Of a stretch of DNA of 41,049 nucleotides, positions 24,411 through 29,791 are shown one piece after another; within the stretch, counting starts at the first letter, position 1, and every line of letters begins with the position of its first letter. The notes beneath the pieces were generated by a model. It ran no database searches. It saw only the letters and a list, made by a program, of their open reading frames with translations, and was not told where the DNA came from. Location of the stretch: assembly GCA_015493715.1 (NCBI GenBank), contig WGCP01000369.1:1-41049 (forward strand). Reading direction: 5' to 3'. The DNA comes from Desulfobulbaceae bacterium (GTDB lineage Bacteria; Desulfobacterota; Desulfobulbia; Desulfobulbales; Desulfobulbaceae). A program made the position numbers and the translations under genes.

Positions 24411-24902
24411 TCAGTCCGGCAGCATCTTCTTTCGTTCTTTTTCGATTTTTTCGACATAGCCGATCGTTTGGCGGGCATTCTTTTGCCCGGTTACCTGAGG
24501 CAGGACCAGGGCCAGCGAATGCCATTTATCTTTTTTCAGCGCCAGCTTCTGCGCCTTGATGATGTTTCCCGGGCCAGCGTTGTAGGCAGCCAGGGAAAAA
24601 CGCAGCCGCTCCAGCCCCTTTTCCTTTTTCCAGATCATCCACATCTCGTGCATGTAGTGGATGCCGAACAGGATGTTGCGGCGTGGATCAAAGGGCCTGT
24701 TCTCCACCCAGAGTCGGCTGGATATTTCCTCGGCCGTCTGCGGCATCAACTGCATCAGCCCCATGGCCCCCGCCGGACTGACCGCCTGCGGGTTCAGGCC
24801 GGACTCCACGATTGCCTGCGCCTTGAACCAGGGCCAGTCAACCAGCCCCTCAAAATAGATCCCGGCATAGAGCCGGAAATGGTGATCAAAGCGATTTGTC
24901 AT
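24411..24902 (-). CDS. Endolysin, lytic transglycosylase (SLT domain)
   Basis: AIVESGLNPQAVSPAGAMGLMQLMPQTA and AAYNAGPGN motifs. Confidence 0.9.
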   Translation of the reverse strand: MTNRFDHHFRLYAGIYFEGLVDWPWFKAQAIVESGLNPQAVSPAGAMGLMQLMPQTAEEISSRLWVENRPFDPRRNILFGIHYMHEMWMIWKKEKGLERLRFSLAAYNAGPGNIIKAQKLALKKDKWHSLALVLPQVTGQKNARQTIGYVEKIEKERKKMLPD

Positions 24903-25807: not shown

Positions 25808-26032
25808 TTAAAGCAGTTTTATCGATTGGTCAACTGATTGCTGCACCGAGTCGATGATCAGGCTCAGTCCGTAGATGTCGCTTTCGTCCAGGTCCAGGCG
25901 GCTGCAGTCGGCAATGGCACGGTTGACAAAACCGAGCACCGCGCTGGCTGCGGCAAGCAGATCAGCGGGATGCTCACCCGCAACCGGCAGCCCGGTTTTT
26001 TCGGCAGCCTCTATGCTGCTTGCGGCAGGCAT
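25808..26032 (-). CDS. Hypothetical acidic protein (74 aa)
   Basis: TGATG start/stop coupling to the ORF6N gene. Confidence 0.5.
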   Translation of the reverse strand: MPAASSIEAAEKTGLPVAGEHPADLLAAASAVLGFVNRAIADCSRLDLDESDIYGLSLIIDSVQQSVDQSIKLL

Positions 26033-26808
26033 CAGGCCACCACCTTGCCGTGACCGTCCTTCCTGATCATCCCCATCTTGAATGCCAGTTTTTCATACCG
26101 CTGCACGGTTGAATTTGAGACATCAAGCAGCTTGGCGGTTTCCCGCTGGGTATTTCCCCGCCTTCGGTAGAGGATGAGCTTATCAAGGAAATTCTCGGGA
26201 AATCCTGATTTCCGGAGAGCGGAAATCATCCTGATGGCCGCCCTGGCCGCCTCGCCCTGGATGGCCTCAACAAGTTCCTGCACCGCCGGAACATACTCCG
26301 GCGGCAAGTCGGCGATCTTCTTGCGGGCAAATACGCCCCTGTCGCCGAACAATGTCGTGATGGCCTCCCCGGCCCGGCTCCCGGACGCTCCGGCCATGGC
26401 GCTTTCTTCCAGGGCGGAAAAGGCCCGCATGATCTGGACGGAACGCTTGGCCGCGACATCGCTTTTCAGAACAGCCGACAACATATTGGCGCCATTGCGG
26501 GTAAACATCCAGGGCCGGACATCATCTCCCGCGTAAATTTTGGTCACATTTTGTGACCTCAAGCTTGGCTCTTCGTCTCCCTCATAAATTTTGGTCGCAT
26601 TTTGCGACCGAATTAGCTCGATCTCGTTTTTAGTCGCCTGAAACACAAAATCTTCCGGGAACCTATCCGGATTACGACGAACCGCCTCATTTGCCCGCTT
26701 GGTTTTGACCCCATAAATAGCGGCAACACTGCTGGCTAACATGGCCGGTGGACGGTTGGGAAGGGTGATGATTGTTGACTGGATGTCTTTGACTGTTACT
26801 TCGCGCAT
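26032..26808 (-). CDS. ORF6N (Bro-N/KilA-N-related) domain protein with C-terminal HTH
   Basis: AAIYGVKTKRANEAVRRNPDRFPEDFVFQ...RSQN.T...PWMFTRNGANMLSAVLKSD..A...SVQIMRAF matches the ORF6N pattern. The C-terminus RRRGNTQRETAKLLDVSNSTVQRYEK is HTH-like. GGAGG SD. Confidence 0.85.
   Translation of the reverse strand: MREVTVKDIQSTIITLPNRPPAMLASSVAAIYGVKTKRANEAVRRNPDRFPEDFVFQATKNEIELIRSQNATKIYEGDEEPSLRSQNVTKIYAGDDVRPWMFTRNGANMLSAVLKSDVAAKRSVQIMRAFSALEESAMAGASGSRAGEAITTLFGDRGVFARKKIADLPPEYVPAVQELVEAIQGEAARAAIRMISALRKSGFPENFLDKLILYRRRGNTQRETAKLLDVSNSTVQRYEKLAFKMGMIRKDGHGKVVA
26533..26609. repeat. Two 26-bp repeats 51 bp apart, each holding a 17-bp dyad, inside the ORF6N CDS
   Basis: GGTCAC-ATTTT-GTGACC at 26542-26558 and GGTCGC-ATTTT-GCGACC at 26593-26609. 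The A>G change in one arm is matched by T>C in the other arm. Confidence 0.9.
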
Positions 26809-27106: not shown

Positions 27107-27511
27107 TCATTTTTGCCTGCATAGTTCGTCCGTCGGTTCAAGCATGCAGTTGATGAACCGGGTTGCACCGTTATAACCCCGCATAAAAGCGTAGTCCCAT
27201 TTGCTCAAGCCTGGGATATCATAAAGAACATGGTTGGCCCTGAATATGGTTTTTGCCAGGGTTATGCCGCTTGCCGGGATCGTGCTTCCCTCTGAATAAT
27301 AATATGCCGCCGTCATCCTGTGCGGTGTGTTTGGGAGCTGTTCAGCATGCCGCCTTATCTCCATCTCTGATACCCCTTTCTTATAGGAAAAGGTAAAGAT
27401 CCTGTTCCTTCCCTTGTCTTTCAGGTACCCAAATTGATTTATTGCACCACCTGCATAAGCAAATGTCGACACCAGGACCATCAGTAATGTAATCATAGCT
27501 GTTTTCTTCAC
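27107..27511 (-). CDS. Secreted hypothetical protein (134 aa)
   Basis: Signal peptide MKKTAMITLLMVLVSTFAYA-GG. AGGAGAGG SD before a GTG start. Has its own downstream terminator. Low GC. Confidence 0.75.
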   Translation of the reverse strand: MKKTAMITLLMVLVSTFAYAGGAINQFGYLKDKGRNRIFTFSYKKGVSEMEIRRHAEQLPNTPHRMTAAYYYSEGSTIPASGITLAKTIFRANHVLYDIPGLSKWDYAFMRGYNGATRFINCMLEPTDELCRQK

Positions 27512-27636
27512 TGTTCCTCTCCTTTCTTGTTATTGTGCCGTTATCGGCAAAAAAACCACAAAACGACAAAACCACATGAATCACAGTTCAGCAACACTTA
27601 CAGCCATTTTGTGACCGTTCTTCCGTGAAAAAACAT

Positions 27637-27664
27637 TTGACAGGTCCCCTTGGACCATGATAAT
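27637..27664 (+). promoter_or_regulatory. Sigma70-type promoter with a palindromic operator in the spacer
   Basis: TTGACA (27637-27642), 16-nt spacer, GATAAT (27659-27664). The spacer contains GGTCC-CCTT-GGACC. Confidence 0.6.
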
Positions 27665-27673
27665 GGAAGTTGT

Positions 27674-27706
27674 CACCTCCCCTAAACAGGGGGAGGGTGT
27701 TTCTTT
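27674..27706 (+). terminator. Leader hairpin plus U-rich tract (possible attenuator) between the promoter and the gene pair
   Basis: CACCTCCCC-TAAACA-GGGGGAGGGTG followed by TTTCTTT, starting a few nt after the predicted TSS. Confidence 0.45.
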
Positions 27707-27746
27707 ACAAGATTACGTCTTTATGACATCCACAACAGAGGAGATT

Positions 27747-27941
27747 ATGAAGTTGAAATGTTTATTTCCCCCTCTTCCCCCTTCTGTTCCCAGACACGGC
27801 GAAAAAGATAAAAGAAAAATGCGGCGCGATGCCGCTCGTCTGGCATCATCAGGAAACGTCCTTGTGCAGCAGGGCCTCTTTGTGACAAAAGAAGAAATTG
27901 ACAGGAGAAAAAAGCGCCTCCTGGAAAAATGTTGTGAATGA
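27747..27941 (+). CDS. Small basic protein (64 aa)
   Basis: GAGGAG lies upstream of the ATG at 27747. The ORF-track start at 27657 lies within the -10 element, upstream of the predicted TSS. ATGA overlap with the next gene. Confidence 0.5.
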   Translation: MKLKCLFPPLPPSVPRHGEKDKRKMRRDAARLASSGNVLVQQGLFVTKEEIDRRKKRLLEKCCE

Positions 27942-28525
27942 GTACCACCGCCATTAAAATAGACCACGCCCATCTTGCCAAAATATGCGACCTTTTTAAG
28001 GAAGCTGAGCGAGCGATTAAAGAGATCGAAGATATCGGGAACGAGCTTATCGTTCCCGCCGTCAACCAACTTCGCTATACCGGCAATCACCTTGTCCGTT
28101 ATCTTGCGGACCCATCCAATGAAAGTGAGCTCTTCGAGGCGGAAAGACACTGTAAACGAGCTTCCTATGACGCCTACGAAGCGGCTATTTTGTACTATCT
28201 CAAACTGTTCCATAAGTTTAAAGATGATTACCGTCGTGTATCAATTGCCTCTGTCCTCCCCGATTATGCTGAATTATGCCTACAGGTGGACAAGGCGCGG
28301 AAACTTATCCGGGACAACAACAAAAGCAAGACGCGCGGTGAATTCTACCAGCAATGCAAGGAGCATCTTGATGTAATTGCAGGTAATGTGAAAAAGATGG
28401 ACGCCTGCCGCGACGAATTGAACAAGTTGATCAAGAAAGAATGGATACAACTTGCCCTTCTTGTCTGTGCAGTTATCGCTGCCGCAGGAGGAATAGCAGC
28501 CATTGTTTCAGCAGCATGCTCTTAA
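27938..28525 (+). CDS. Tail-anchored helical membrane protein (195 aa) with R-x4-H motif
   Basis: C-terminal TM WIQLALLVCAVIAAAGGIAAIVSAA. Contains LRYTGNH and HCKRASYDAYE. Low GC. Confidence 0.7.
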   Translation: MSTTAIKIDHAHLAKICDLFKEAERAIKEIEDIGNELIVPAVNQLRYTGNHLVRYLADPSNESELFEAERHCKRASYDAYEAAILYYLKLFHKFKDDYRRVSIASVLPDYAELCLQVDKARKLIRDNNKSKTRGEFYQQCKEHLDVIAGNVKKMDACRDELNKLIKKEWIQLALLVCAVIAAAGGIAAIVSAACS

Positions 28526-28570
28526 CGCAAGACAACCACATCAACCCTTTTATAACTCACCAGTTTTCTC

Positions 28571-29011
28571 CTACTTATTATTCCCCGGTCCGATCATCCA
28601 GGTGTCGATGTCCAGGCCGTCATTGAGGATGACGCTGTTTAAGCGGATCCAATAGCGCATGTCCTTCGGTTTTTCCAGGATCAGCACAATTCCCGCCTTT
28701 TTCCCCGTCTGCAGGCTGTAATACAGTGACTGGCCGATGGCCTCTTCCCACTTGTCGGCAAAGTCAAACTCTATGGCGTGGCTGGAGGTCAGGCAGTCGC
28801 AGCGGGTACGGTCGGCCAGGACCACCTCTGTGCGGCCGTTATGCTCGCTGCACCAGGCCTGCTGATACCATTTTTCATGGTGATTGCGCCTGGCGTGCGC
28901 GGTGTTCGGCGCAAACAGGGCATACAGCACCCATGACAACAGGACCATGGATCCTATGTATGTCAGCCAGAACCAGCCGCAGGCCGTTAACCGTTTTCGT
29001 GTTTTTTTCAC
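28571..29011 (-). CDS. N-terminally membrane-anchored hypothetical protein (146 aa)
   Basis: MKKTRKR followed by TM WFWLTYIGSMVLLSWVLYALF. C-domain contains DCLT....AIEFDFADKWEEAIGQSLYY...KKAGIVLI. Start overlaps the mor stop. Confidence 0.65.
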   Translation of the reverse strand: MKKTRKRLTACGWFWLTYIGSMVLLSWVLYALFAPNTAHARRNHHEKWYQQAWCSEHNGRTEVVLADRTRCDCLTSSHAIEFDFADKWEEAIGQSLYYSLQTGKKAGIVLILEKPKDMRYWIRLNSVILNDGLDIDTWMIGPGNNK

Positions 29012-29373
29012 TATCTGAACAGCTCCATTTGTTTATTCTTTTTGGCCGGTCCGGACGGGGCGGCCAGGATTTCCTTTACCCTGCGGTGGCTGAGGTTGTA
29101 TTTTGACGCCAGGTCAAGCATGGTGACGTCGCCACCATCATAGTCGGAGATCATGGCCTTATCACGGATTTTCCGCAACAAATCCTTTATCCCGCGCATA
29201 TACAGCGGTTGCCCGGAAAACACCTGGGCCAGAAACAAGGTCAGCTTGACGCCTTGTCCTGGGCGATACCGTTCTATCTCCGCCGCGATCCTTGACAGAC
29301 CGCCCGGGAGATCTTCTATCTTCGGCAGGTGCTCTTCCGGTATCTCGATTATTTTCTTCCTCGTTTCAAACAA
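29011..29373 (-). CDS. mor: Mor-family transcription activator
   Basis: SGQPLYMRGIKDLLRKIRDKAMISDYDGGDVTMLDLASKYNLSHRRVKEIL parallels Mu Mor GGQVYIPRG...RD..I..DF.G.NV.EL...YG. Confidence 0.85.
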   Translation of the reverse strand: MFETRKKIIEIPEEHLPKIEDLPGGLSRIAAEIERYRPGQGVKLTLFLAQVFSGQPLYMRGIKDLLRKIRDKAMISDYDGGDVTMLDLASKYNLSHRRVKEILAAPSGPAKKNKQMELFR

Positions 29374-29791
29374 GATCTACGCCCTCCCGCGCGCCCCAAT
29401 CCTTGAGCGCCTCAATTATCGTGTTTTTCTCCCCGGTCGTGCACCAGCGCATGTGATGCTTCTTGGTCATGCGCCGGACAAAGGCCTGCAGGGCACGATC
29501 AGACTTGTTTCTGACGACTCCCGCCTTTGCCAGCTCCAGCCAGAGCGCGATTATCTTGCCCTCCTGGCCGTCTGTCGGTTTGGAATATACGCCCGGCAGC
29601 TTCTGCTGGTATTTCGGCTTCCAGCCCAGGGACCGAAAGTGATTGATAAGCCGGCATGCCTGGCCGACCGTCAATTTGGCCGCTGATTCTTTACCGAAAC
29701 GCTCCCGCATAATGTCCCGGTAGGCCTCGTCGGTGAGACCAAGCTCTTTTTTGGCTATGTGGATCTTGGCCAGATCAGCTCTTGACGGCAT
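29366..29791 (-). CDS. gemA: Mu gp16 / GemA-like (DUF1018) protein
   Basis: ADLAKIHIAKKELGLTDEAYRDIM...KLTVGQACRLINHFRSLGW pattern. Lies directly upstream of mor, as in Mu. Confidence 0.8.
   Translation of the reverse strand: MPSRADLAKIHIAKKELGLTDEAYRDIMRERFGKESAAKLTVGQACRLINHFRSLGWKPKYQQKLPGVYSKPTDGQEGKIIALWLELAKAGVVRNKSDRALQAFVRRMTKKHHMRWCTTGEKNTIIEALKDWGAREGVDLV

Follow-up and report, generated by a model that had tools for sequence, protein, structure and literature searches.

A mobile two-gene cassette of a Mu-like prophage pairs a tail-anchored membrane protein with a small basic partner and may be a conflict module

The window examined here, a stretch of 41,049 nucleotides from a Desulfobulbaceae bacterium (assembly GCA_015493715.1, contig WGCP01000369.1, positions 1 to 41,049 of the forward strand), holds a Mu-like prophage on the minus strand, with every large phage open reading frame (ORF) on that strand. 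Two plus-strand genes lie against it, one encoding a basic protein of 64 amino acids and the other a protein of 195 amino acids that ends in a membrane anchor. These genes occur as a strict pair across about ten phyla, and the large protein carries nearly invariant Arg and His residues. The pair appears to be a self-contained, horizontally mobile cassette, carried here as a moron of the prophage. We tentatively favor reading it as a toxin–antitoxin (TA) or abortive-infection-like conflict cassette with a membrane-tethered effector.

An initial annotation, made from the letters of the window alone, had described a low-GC plus-strand pair linked by an ATGA overlap and lying at the junction of early and middle phage operons, and this description agrees with the coordinates (Table 1). 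The ATGA at 27938-27941 joins the stop of the small gene to the start of the large gene, the GC content of the pair is 46.7% compared with 52.4% for the window and 55-61% for the flanks, and the pair is flanked by the Mor/GemA early genes on one side and an anti-repressor-like gene on the other, antisense to both. The low-GC island as a whole extends from 27107 to 28570. In the public gene call the small ORF has 94 amino acids and starts at the ATG at 27657 (27657-27941). We take 27747 as the start instead, because the upstream ATG lies inside a predicted promoter, the block shared with a metagenomic Mu-like element (L001) begins only at 27728, the family alignment starts at the Met of the 64-residue form, and a GAGGAG ribosome-binding site precedes it. 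Small ORFs of this family are often unannotated in public genomes, and few members of the Pseudomonas cluster are named.

Table 1 Features of the window
Feature	Position	Strand	Basis or remark
Small partner gene, 64 aa	27747-27941	plus	ORF call
Large gene, 195 aa	27938-28525	plus	ORF call
Mobile cassette by homology	27728-28538 (811 bp)	plus	85.5% identical to L001; Mu-like backbone 68-74%
Sigma-70-like promoter TTGACA-16 nt-GATAAT	27637-27664	plus	11/12 consensus matches; strong; predicted, directly upstream of pair
Leader stem-loop CCTCCCC-TAAAC-AGGGGGAGG, then U-rich tract	27676-27706	plus	folding, z = -2.85
GAGGAG ribosome-binding site of small gene	27738-27743	plus	inside the 85%-identical block starting at 27728
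Small-family core motif GN-x2-LQ-x-G-x-[YF]-x-T	27852-27887	plus	family alignment
E24-x3-K28	28007-28021	plus	helix 1; E 98%, K 92% conserved
R46-Y-T-G-N-H51 (R-x4-H), in LRYTGNH	28073-28090	plus	middle of helix 2
H71-C-K-R74-A-S-Y-D78-A-Y-E81	28148-28180	plus	helix 3
C-terminal membrane anchor (WIQLALLVCAVIAAAGGIAAIVSAACS)	28442-28522	plus	preceded by conserved juxtamembrane R158-x-E-L-N162
SLT endolysin	24411-24902	minus	family search
ORF6N + C-terminal helix-turn-helix (HTH) anti-repressor-like gene	26032-26808	minus	family search
134-aa ORF, Sec-type signal peptide (MKKTAMITLLMVLVSTFAYAGG...)	27107-27511	minus	inside low-GC island shared with pair
146-aa ORF, N-terminal transmembrane segment	28571-29011	minus	converges on pair, 45-nt gap
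Mor	29011-29373	minus	family search
GemA	29366-29791	minus	Pfam E = 8.8e-34

To characterize the genetic neighborhood of the family, every ORF up to 3 kb from the large gene was clustered over 84 non-redundant loci. In 81 of them a small ORF lies ~220 nt upstream on the same strand, and it is the sole conserved neighbor; no conserved third gene emerges, the remaining clusters being antisense shadow ORFs. With hidden Markov models both genes are recognized in 93 of 96 loci, and two of the other three contain diverged small genes discernible by eye (~95/96), which leaves one locus (L083) as the only one lacking a recognizable small partner upstream. A metagenome search started from the small protein finds the large gene directly downstream in all 18 evaluable loci, and the four contigs among 2.9 million in IMG/VR that bear the large gene all bear the small one as well. 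Of 48 loci, at least 36 have the two genes overlapping or no more than 18 nt apart. Divergence of the partners is correlated (Mantel r = 0.66, a value reached by 0 of 999 permutations), and synonymous changes prevail among the codons that differ between the window and L001 (synonymous/nonsynonymous, 8/4 in the small and 49/29 in the large gene). The co-occurrence and the codon changes bear out the earlier proposal of a genuine, conserved two-gene module.

The large gene is essentially never found without the small gene. A solo small gene, in turn, is present in a lineage of ~1-Mb Pseudomonas megaplasmids (L097-L100), for example at L099:7001-7198 on the megaplasmid of Pseudomonas amygdali pv. 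lachrymans (CP031226.1). No homolog of the large protein lies within 14 kb of it, and an unrelated 128-aa ORF and an HTH_3 gene follow downstream. By analogy, solo copies of the small but not of the large gene form an asymmetry typical of a toxin and its neutralizer, and the megaplasmid gene may be an orphan neutralizer.

Apart from 59 close relatives of the large protein, a profile search of 1.84 billion representatives retrieves 1,714 clusters (50% identity) at E <= 1e-3 and 1,038 at E <= 1e-10. A pattern scan of one genome per species (~185,000) yields 130 relatives in ~10 phyla. The family is represented in Desulfobacterota, Chlorobiota, Acidobacteriota, Alpha-, Gamma-, and Zetaproteobacteria, Magnetococcales, Planctomycetota, Verrucomicrobiota, Bacteroidota, and candidate phyla, and the pair is widespread in the Pseudomonas syringae/viridiflava group. 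All named large-family members are designated "hypothetical protein".

An AlphaFold2 model of the large protein, built on a 33-sequence alignment (pLDDT 94.3, pTM 0.83), consists of six helices (residues 10-34, 39-57, 63-97, 110-127, 133-156, and 158-194) and no strands. The sole hydrophobic segment, residues 169-195, falls in the last helix, in line with the all-helical protein with a single C-terminal transmembrane (TM) segment expected at the outset. Exactly one such C-terminal segment is found in 188 of 193 full-length relatives, and beyond it the relatives have nothing or a short variable tail, often rich in Pro, Ser, and Thr. Because the single segment is C-terminal and followed by a variable tail or none, the conserved part is predicted to be cytoplasmic, with the TM segment as its anchor. 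An atypical member of 308 amino acids is encoded in Chloroherpetonaceae (L083:5974-6897, plus strand); like P0164, it has an extra coiled coil and a second TM segment.

Conservation was evaluated in 194 diverse relatives of the large protein, mostly 30-50% identical. Conserved residues form stripes along helix 1 (E24-K28-E31), helix 2 (N43-R46-Y47-H51), and helix 3 (H71-R74-D78-E81), complemented by the juxtamembrane R-x-E-L-N. R46 and H71 are present in 100% of the sequences, N43, H51, and R74 in 99%, E24 and Y47 in 98%, D78 in 97%, R158 in 96%, and K28, E31, D97, Y98, and N162 in 92-93%. The two motifs that the initial annotation had singled out, LRYTGNH and HCKRASYDAYE, are thus both present, and their Arg and His residues are essentially invariant in these relatives; a lack of conservation there would have spoken against that annotation. 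The conservation of R46, H71, H51, R74, N43, and E24 suggests an enzyme-like site.

The small protein is highly basic, as previously noted (pI 10.1; 17 Lys and Arg residues), and its family has a median length of 67 amino acids and a median pI of 10.3, complementing the soluble part of the large family, which is acidic (median pI 5.5). Its members share a layout in which a variable, amphipathic or Pro-rich N-terminus is followed by a basic helix, the core motif, and a basic C-terminal helix. The full core reads GN-x2-LQ-x-G-x-[YF]-x-T-x-[ED]-[ED], with G36, Q41, and G43 invariant. In the AlphaFold2 model (pLDDT 73.8) the protein adopts a helix-loop-helix (residues 19-41 and 48-62) behind an N-terminus predicted to be disordered. 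The modeled two-helix hairpin, whose turn contains a Gly and is followed by acidic residues and a basic second helix, is reminiscent of SHOCT (PF09851), a hairpin of ~30 amino acids with a conserved Gly in the turn (PMC3581485). Unlike SHOCT, the small protein has the distinctive GN-x2-LQ-x-G-x-Y-x-T core, and the PF09851 model finds no match at E <= 1 in eight diverse small proteins. The similarity of the small protein, with its invariant G43, to SHOCT is therefore a resemblance only.

Neither protein of the window is matched by any TA, HEPN, or other model in Pfam, NCBIfam, PHROGs, or PADLOC. The four libraries are likewise without a match for 40 diverse large and 8-10 diverse small relatives, PADLOC-DB v2.0.0 gives zero families at E <= 1 for both proteins, and no PHROG passes the default threshold for the pair (best E = 0.02). 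Sub-threshold Pfam matches (UBR4 in 5/40 relatives, DUF2207_C in 5/40, Synaptobrevin in 2/40) were discarded as noise from a generic coiled-coil and TM composition. In sequence and profile searches of the PDB, the only matches are to designed helical proteins and VAMP2 (E 0.002-0.02) and cover the juxtamembrane helix and TM segment, which is again coiled-coil/TM noise, and a SNARE/syntaxin-like reading of the large protein was rejected as compositional. With Foldseek, the large-protein model reaches E <= 1e-3 with no entry of the PDB or BFVD and has no HEPN among its top matches, the best BFVD match being an uncharacterized Clandestinovirus protein (E 0.21); the small-protein model finds nothing. 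Likenesses to anti-sigma (ZAS), HPt, HisKA H-box, Fic, and di-iron/hemerythrin motifs were dropped, as the motifs are spaced differently and the searches lend them no support. A description of such a pair was not found in the literature. We conclude, as the initial annotation had surmised, that both proteins belong to no described family, and that the module is undescribed in all resources searched.

The R-x4-H of the large protein had been noted to have the spacing of HEPN RNase active sites. HEPN domains are recognized by a conserved R-x4-6-H, an upstream E-x3-[KR], and N, D, or H after the Arg, and they fold into a four-helix up-down bundle with the R-x4-6-H at the end of helix 3 or in the loop to helix 4 and an acidic residue in helix 2 (PMC3710099). 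R46-x4-H51 (R 100%, H 99%) and E24-x3-K28 conform to the first two features. The residue after the Arg is a Tyr (Y47, 98%), and in the model E24 is located in helix 1 and R46/H51 in the middle of helix 2 of six. Neither agrees with HEPN as described, although a permuted arrangement is conceivable. The HEPN models of Pfam appear neither on the window protein nor in 40 relatives (best 25 of 74 families), and no HEPN chain is retrieved in the PDB profile search. The spacing thus stands, whereas membership is not established: we do not file the family as HEPN, because of the Tyr after the Arg, the motif position in mid-helix 2 of six, and the lack of a profile or structure match. By analogy, metal-independent, HEPN-like Arg/His cleavage of a phosphodiester would be the most economical guess for the chemistry of the site. 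A separate helical ORF of 176 amino acids in a chromosomal locus, ~1.3 kb upstream of the pair (L009:4939-5469, plus strand), contains LSERNWLVH (R-N-x3-H). It has no significant match in the PDB, and hhalign of the large-family profile against it gives a probability of 0.2, with a template that is a single sequence and not a confirmed HEPN.

The boundaries of the module are apparent from the comparison with L001, which codes for MuA- and MuB-like proteins, DUF3164, and GemA and is collinear with the window from 29.4 to 39.1 kb at 68-74% nucleotide identity. The 811-bp block of higher identity spans only the ribosome-binding site, the small gene, and the large gene, indicating from sequence identity that the cassette moves as a unit, independently of the phage backbone. 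In three Mu-like prophages (window, L001, L011) the pair sits between the end of the early operon and a gene of anti-repressor type (ORF6N, Rha, or P22_AR_N), in antisense orientation each time. In lambda-like phages it is found, on either strand, between the large terminase and gpW/portal (L005/L013/L014/L093, L094), and elsewhere it adjoins a phage integrase (L095) or, in a polysaccharide island, ParE and CcdAB (L004). Most loci place it between housekeeping genes, for example aldehyde dehydrogenase/GTP cyclohydrolase, pst-phoU/RND efflux, comM/MCP (Pseudomonas viridiflava), or epimerases. A consistent link of the homologs to lysis or morphogenesis genes would have spoken against the initial annotation and is not seen; most homologs are chromosomal and non-phage, and the phage copies occupy moron positions. 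Duplicated ORFs flanking the pair in L091, initially taken for insertion-sequence elements, are PBP-like solute-binding proteins, not transposases.

Two metagenome-assembled genomes of Chlorobiales carry the pair in type III-B CRISPR loci, on one strand in the order RT-Cas1, (type II restriction-modification), Csx23, small gene, large gene, Cas10, Cmr3, and further genes. The pair region (L015:2201-3416, L017:4896-6534) lies between a Csx23-like gene and Cas10/Cmr2. The Cas1-Csx23-pair block is kept in both loci, with 79% identity between the large proteins and 58% between the Csx23 proteins; between the Cas10 genes downstream, blastp finds no relationship. The small gene of L015 overlaps the csx23 stop. 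Csx23 itself is rare, occurring in 4 of 1,113 type III loci (PMC11229360). An assignment of Bathymodiolus-symbiont loci as CRISPR-linked was wrong, and L015 and L017 are the loci in question.

The pair has a strong predicted sigma-70-type promoter of its own directly upstream and is antisense to the phage operons; it is therefore probably expressed in the lysogen. This promoter is specific to the window, as it lies outside the block common to L001. Likewise, a GC-rich stem-loop in the leader, followed by GUGUUUCUUU and more stable than all 200 shuffles, has no counterpart in L001, where homology begins at 27728. Located ~5 nt past the predicted transcription start, it looks like a terminator or attenuator right behind a strong promoter, and it could act as such or as a stabilizer of the 5' end. 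Two further terminator-like hairpins with T tracts are found inside the small gene on the minus strand (27821-27835 and 27902-27923) and could stop read-through of the phage early operon antisense into the pair. The region contains five terminator-like hairpins compared with 2.0 +/- 1.7 in shuffles, which is not clearly higher.

How might such a pair work? In the mechanism we propose, the tail-anchored inner-membrane protein, translationally coupled to the basic helix-loop-helix protein, would be bound and kept in check by it. Loss or displacement of the small protein, e.g. upon phage infection or loss of the element, would release the large protein to act at the membrane via its Arg/His site, most plausibly by metal-independent cleavage of RNA or nucleotides with HEPN-like chemistry or, alternatively, by nucleotide binding. 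The reading as a conflict cassette draws on the strict pairing, the coupling and order of the genes, the charge complementarity, and the solo-small asymmetry on the one hand, and on the mobility of the cassette, its patchy spread, and its recurrence as a prophage moron and in CRISPR and TA loci on the other.

Described systems offer both parallels and differences. As in type II TA operons, the genes are small, adjacent, co-directional, and overlapping, with the small one first, and are inherited as a unit; the pair is patchy and mobile and adjoins other TA pairs in L004, and the orphan small gene on the megaplasmid resembles anti-addiction antitoxins. Unlike type II TA systems, neither protein falls into a known toxin or antitoxin family, the small protein has no recognizable DNA-binding fold, and the putative toxin is membrane-anchored. 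HEPN RNase toxins (HepT/DUF86, AbiV, RnlA/LsoA; PMC3710099) are likewise small and all-helical, with an invariant R-x4-H after an invariant E-x3-K, and occur with a small partner gene in TA-, abortive-infection-, and CRISPR-type contexts; the second invariant stripe, H-x2-R-x3-D, and the C-terminal anchor set the large protein apart from them. The module therefore resembles two-gene TA and abortive-infection systems, but both of its protein families are new and its putative effector is unusual in being tail-anchored.

Several observations weigh against this interpretation. The library, PDB profile, and Foldseek searches described above provide no TA, HEPN, or other known relative, and the confidence of the small-protein model is only moderate. 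Immediate neighbors are mostly housekeeping genes: defense-type PADLOC matches occur in ~9 of 142 (Cas10 x2, Csx23 x2, capP x2, SoFic, PDC-S68, and RecD-IV), a raw count with no background rate. The IMG/VR contigs with the large gene are few, and INPHARED phages and PLSDB plasmids, searched along with E. coli genomes by DNA comparison and tblastn, contain no relative; an IMG/VR scan with an alignment of a small-protein subgroup also returned no viral relatives. Instead of inhibiting the large protein, the small one could equally serve it as an obligate cofactor or chaperone, and we infer toxicity, interaction, and defense from sequence. As to the toxin/partner or defense role put forward in the initial annotation, the patchy distribution over ~10 phyla, the cassette boundaries, the solo small gene, and the CRISPR and TA contexts fit it, whereas the defense-island signal is weak.

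The housekeeping surroundings and weak defense-island signal would suit a non-conflict accessory function, in which an enzyme, sensor, or regulator tethered to the membrane, together with a small subunit or chaperone that it requires, serves envelope or stress physiology or nucleotide metabolism and is taken up as occasional phage cargo. Sequence conservation that is high for a conflict protein and the wide occurrence in the P. syringae/viridiflava group point in the same direction. We nevertheless consider such a function rather unlikely, given that the family is extremely patchy (130 of ~185,000 species, ~10 phyla) and without synteny, that the cassette has defined boundaries and moves apart from the phage backbone, that it recurs as a prophage moron and also inside CRISPR and TA loci, and that no conserved pathway partner accompanies it.

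The prophage setting brings to mind the membrane-anchored abortive-infection and exclusion morons of other prophages, with which the pair shares the low GC content, antisense orientation, own promoter, and single-pass membrane product. The tail-anchored protein and its small helper could thus stop competing phages at entry or early steps at the inner membrane, in a non-lethal manner, and the hot spot common to three Mu-like prophages, the promoter antisense to lytic genes, and the predicted membrane location would agree with superinfection exclusion or a block of injection. We regard this as improbable, however: the conserved part is predicted to be cytoplasmic whereas the TM segment and periplasmic tail are variable, the tail often being absent, and catalytic-looking invariant residues are unexpected in a steric blocker. 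Moreover, in contrast to these morons, the family is mostly chromosomal and spread over many phyla, with most copies outside prophages, and it combines a conserved cytoplasmic, enzyme-like part with an obligate small partner.

Still more doubtful is a role as an accessory of cyclic-nucleotide immune signaling, either as a membrane ancillary effector of type III CRISPR systems or as a ring-nuclease-like off-switch acting with Csx23. The order Csx23, small gene, large gene, Cas10 is kept in two diverged Chlorobiales loci, with an overlap of the small gene and the csx23 stop in one of them and a Csx23 that is itself rare. Arg/His sites would suit metal-independent phosphodiester chemistry, and a membrane-tethered large protein with a cytoplasmic helical domain is also seen in Csx23 and other type III CRISPR membrane effectors. 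Yet CRISPR genes adjoin only 2 of ~96 loci, Cas10 is missing from the surroundings of the Pseudomonas, Desulfobulbales, and prophage copies, and no CARF/SAVED-like fold was found with Foldseek in the PDB or BFVD. Csx23 shows no homology to the pair, is anchored at its N-terminus, and stands alone. An accessory role in phage lysis or morphogenesis, for example as a holin/antiholin-like protein or an assembly factor, can scarcely be entertained: two lambda-like lineages do hold the pair between large terminase and portal and the SLT endolysin is ~3 kb away in the window, but the pair is antisense to the structural and lysis genes both in the window and in L094, most copies by far are found outside phages, the large protein has a single TM segment with a large conserved cytoplasmic domain, and no PHROG matches.

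Two other ORFs next to the pair in the window are without a family. The 134-aa ORF with a signal peptide has no significant match in Pfam, PHROGs, PADLOC, or NCBIfam (best E = 0.13-0.16) and is probably a second moron, unrelated to the pair. The 146-aa ORF has no family match in any library; its start abuts or overlaps the mor stop (coordinate 29011), and it is therefore translationally coupled to the early operon. Besides PHROG anti-repressor families, the ORF6N/HTH protein matches the candidate-system models PDC-S05 of PADLOC (E = 3.5e-31). In one of the lambda-like loci, the large terminase of 1,039 amino acids (gpA ATPase and nuclease; L094:5720-8839, minus strand) has a C-terminal LAGLIDADG_3 match, which suggests an intein or homing-endonuclease insertion.

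A bolder version of the conflict-cassette reading, which we put forward as speculative and unlikely to hold in every part, is that of a new class of conflict system: a membrane-tethered Arg/His phosphodiesterase held off by a helix-loop-helix partner of 60-70 amino acids. In prophages and type III CRISPR loci it would provide abortive infection or back-up immunity, and the orphan small proteins on megaplasmids would be anti-addiction or anti-defense factors. The phosphodiesterase would be either an RNase resembling HEPN, by convergence or as a highly derived form, or a nuclease or sensor of cyclic nucleotides.

If the conflict-cassette reading is true, an unannotated and phylogenetically broad two-gene system would be added to the TA and anti-phage repertoire. 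Its design would be unusual, with an effector tail-anchored in the inner membrane that exposes an enzyme-like Arg/His site to the cytoplasm, and one and the same cassette would be a moron where Mu-like and lambda-like prophages carry it and an insert where it occurs within type III CRISPR loci. Even if the pair does not act in defense, both families merit database models and the small ORF merits annotation.

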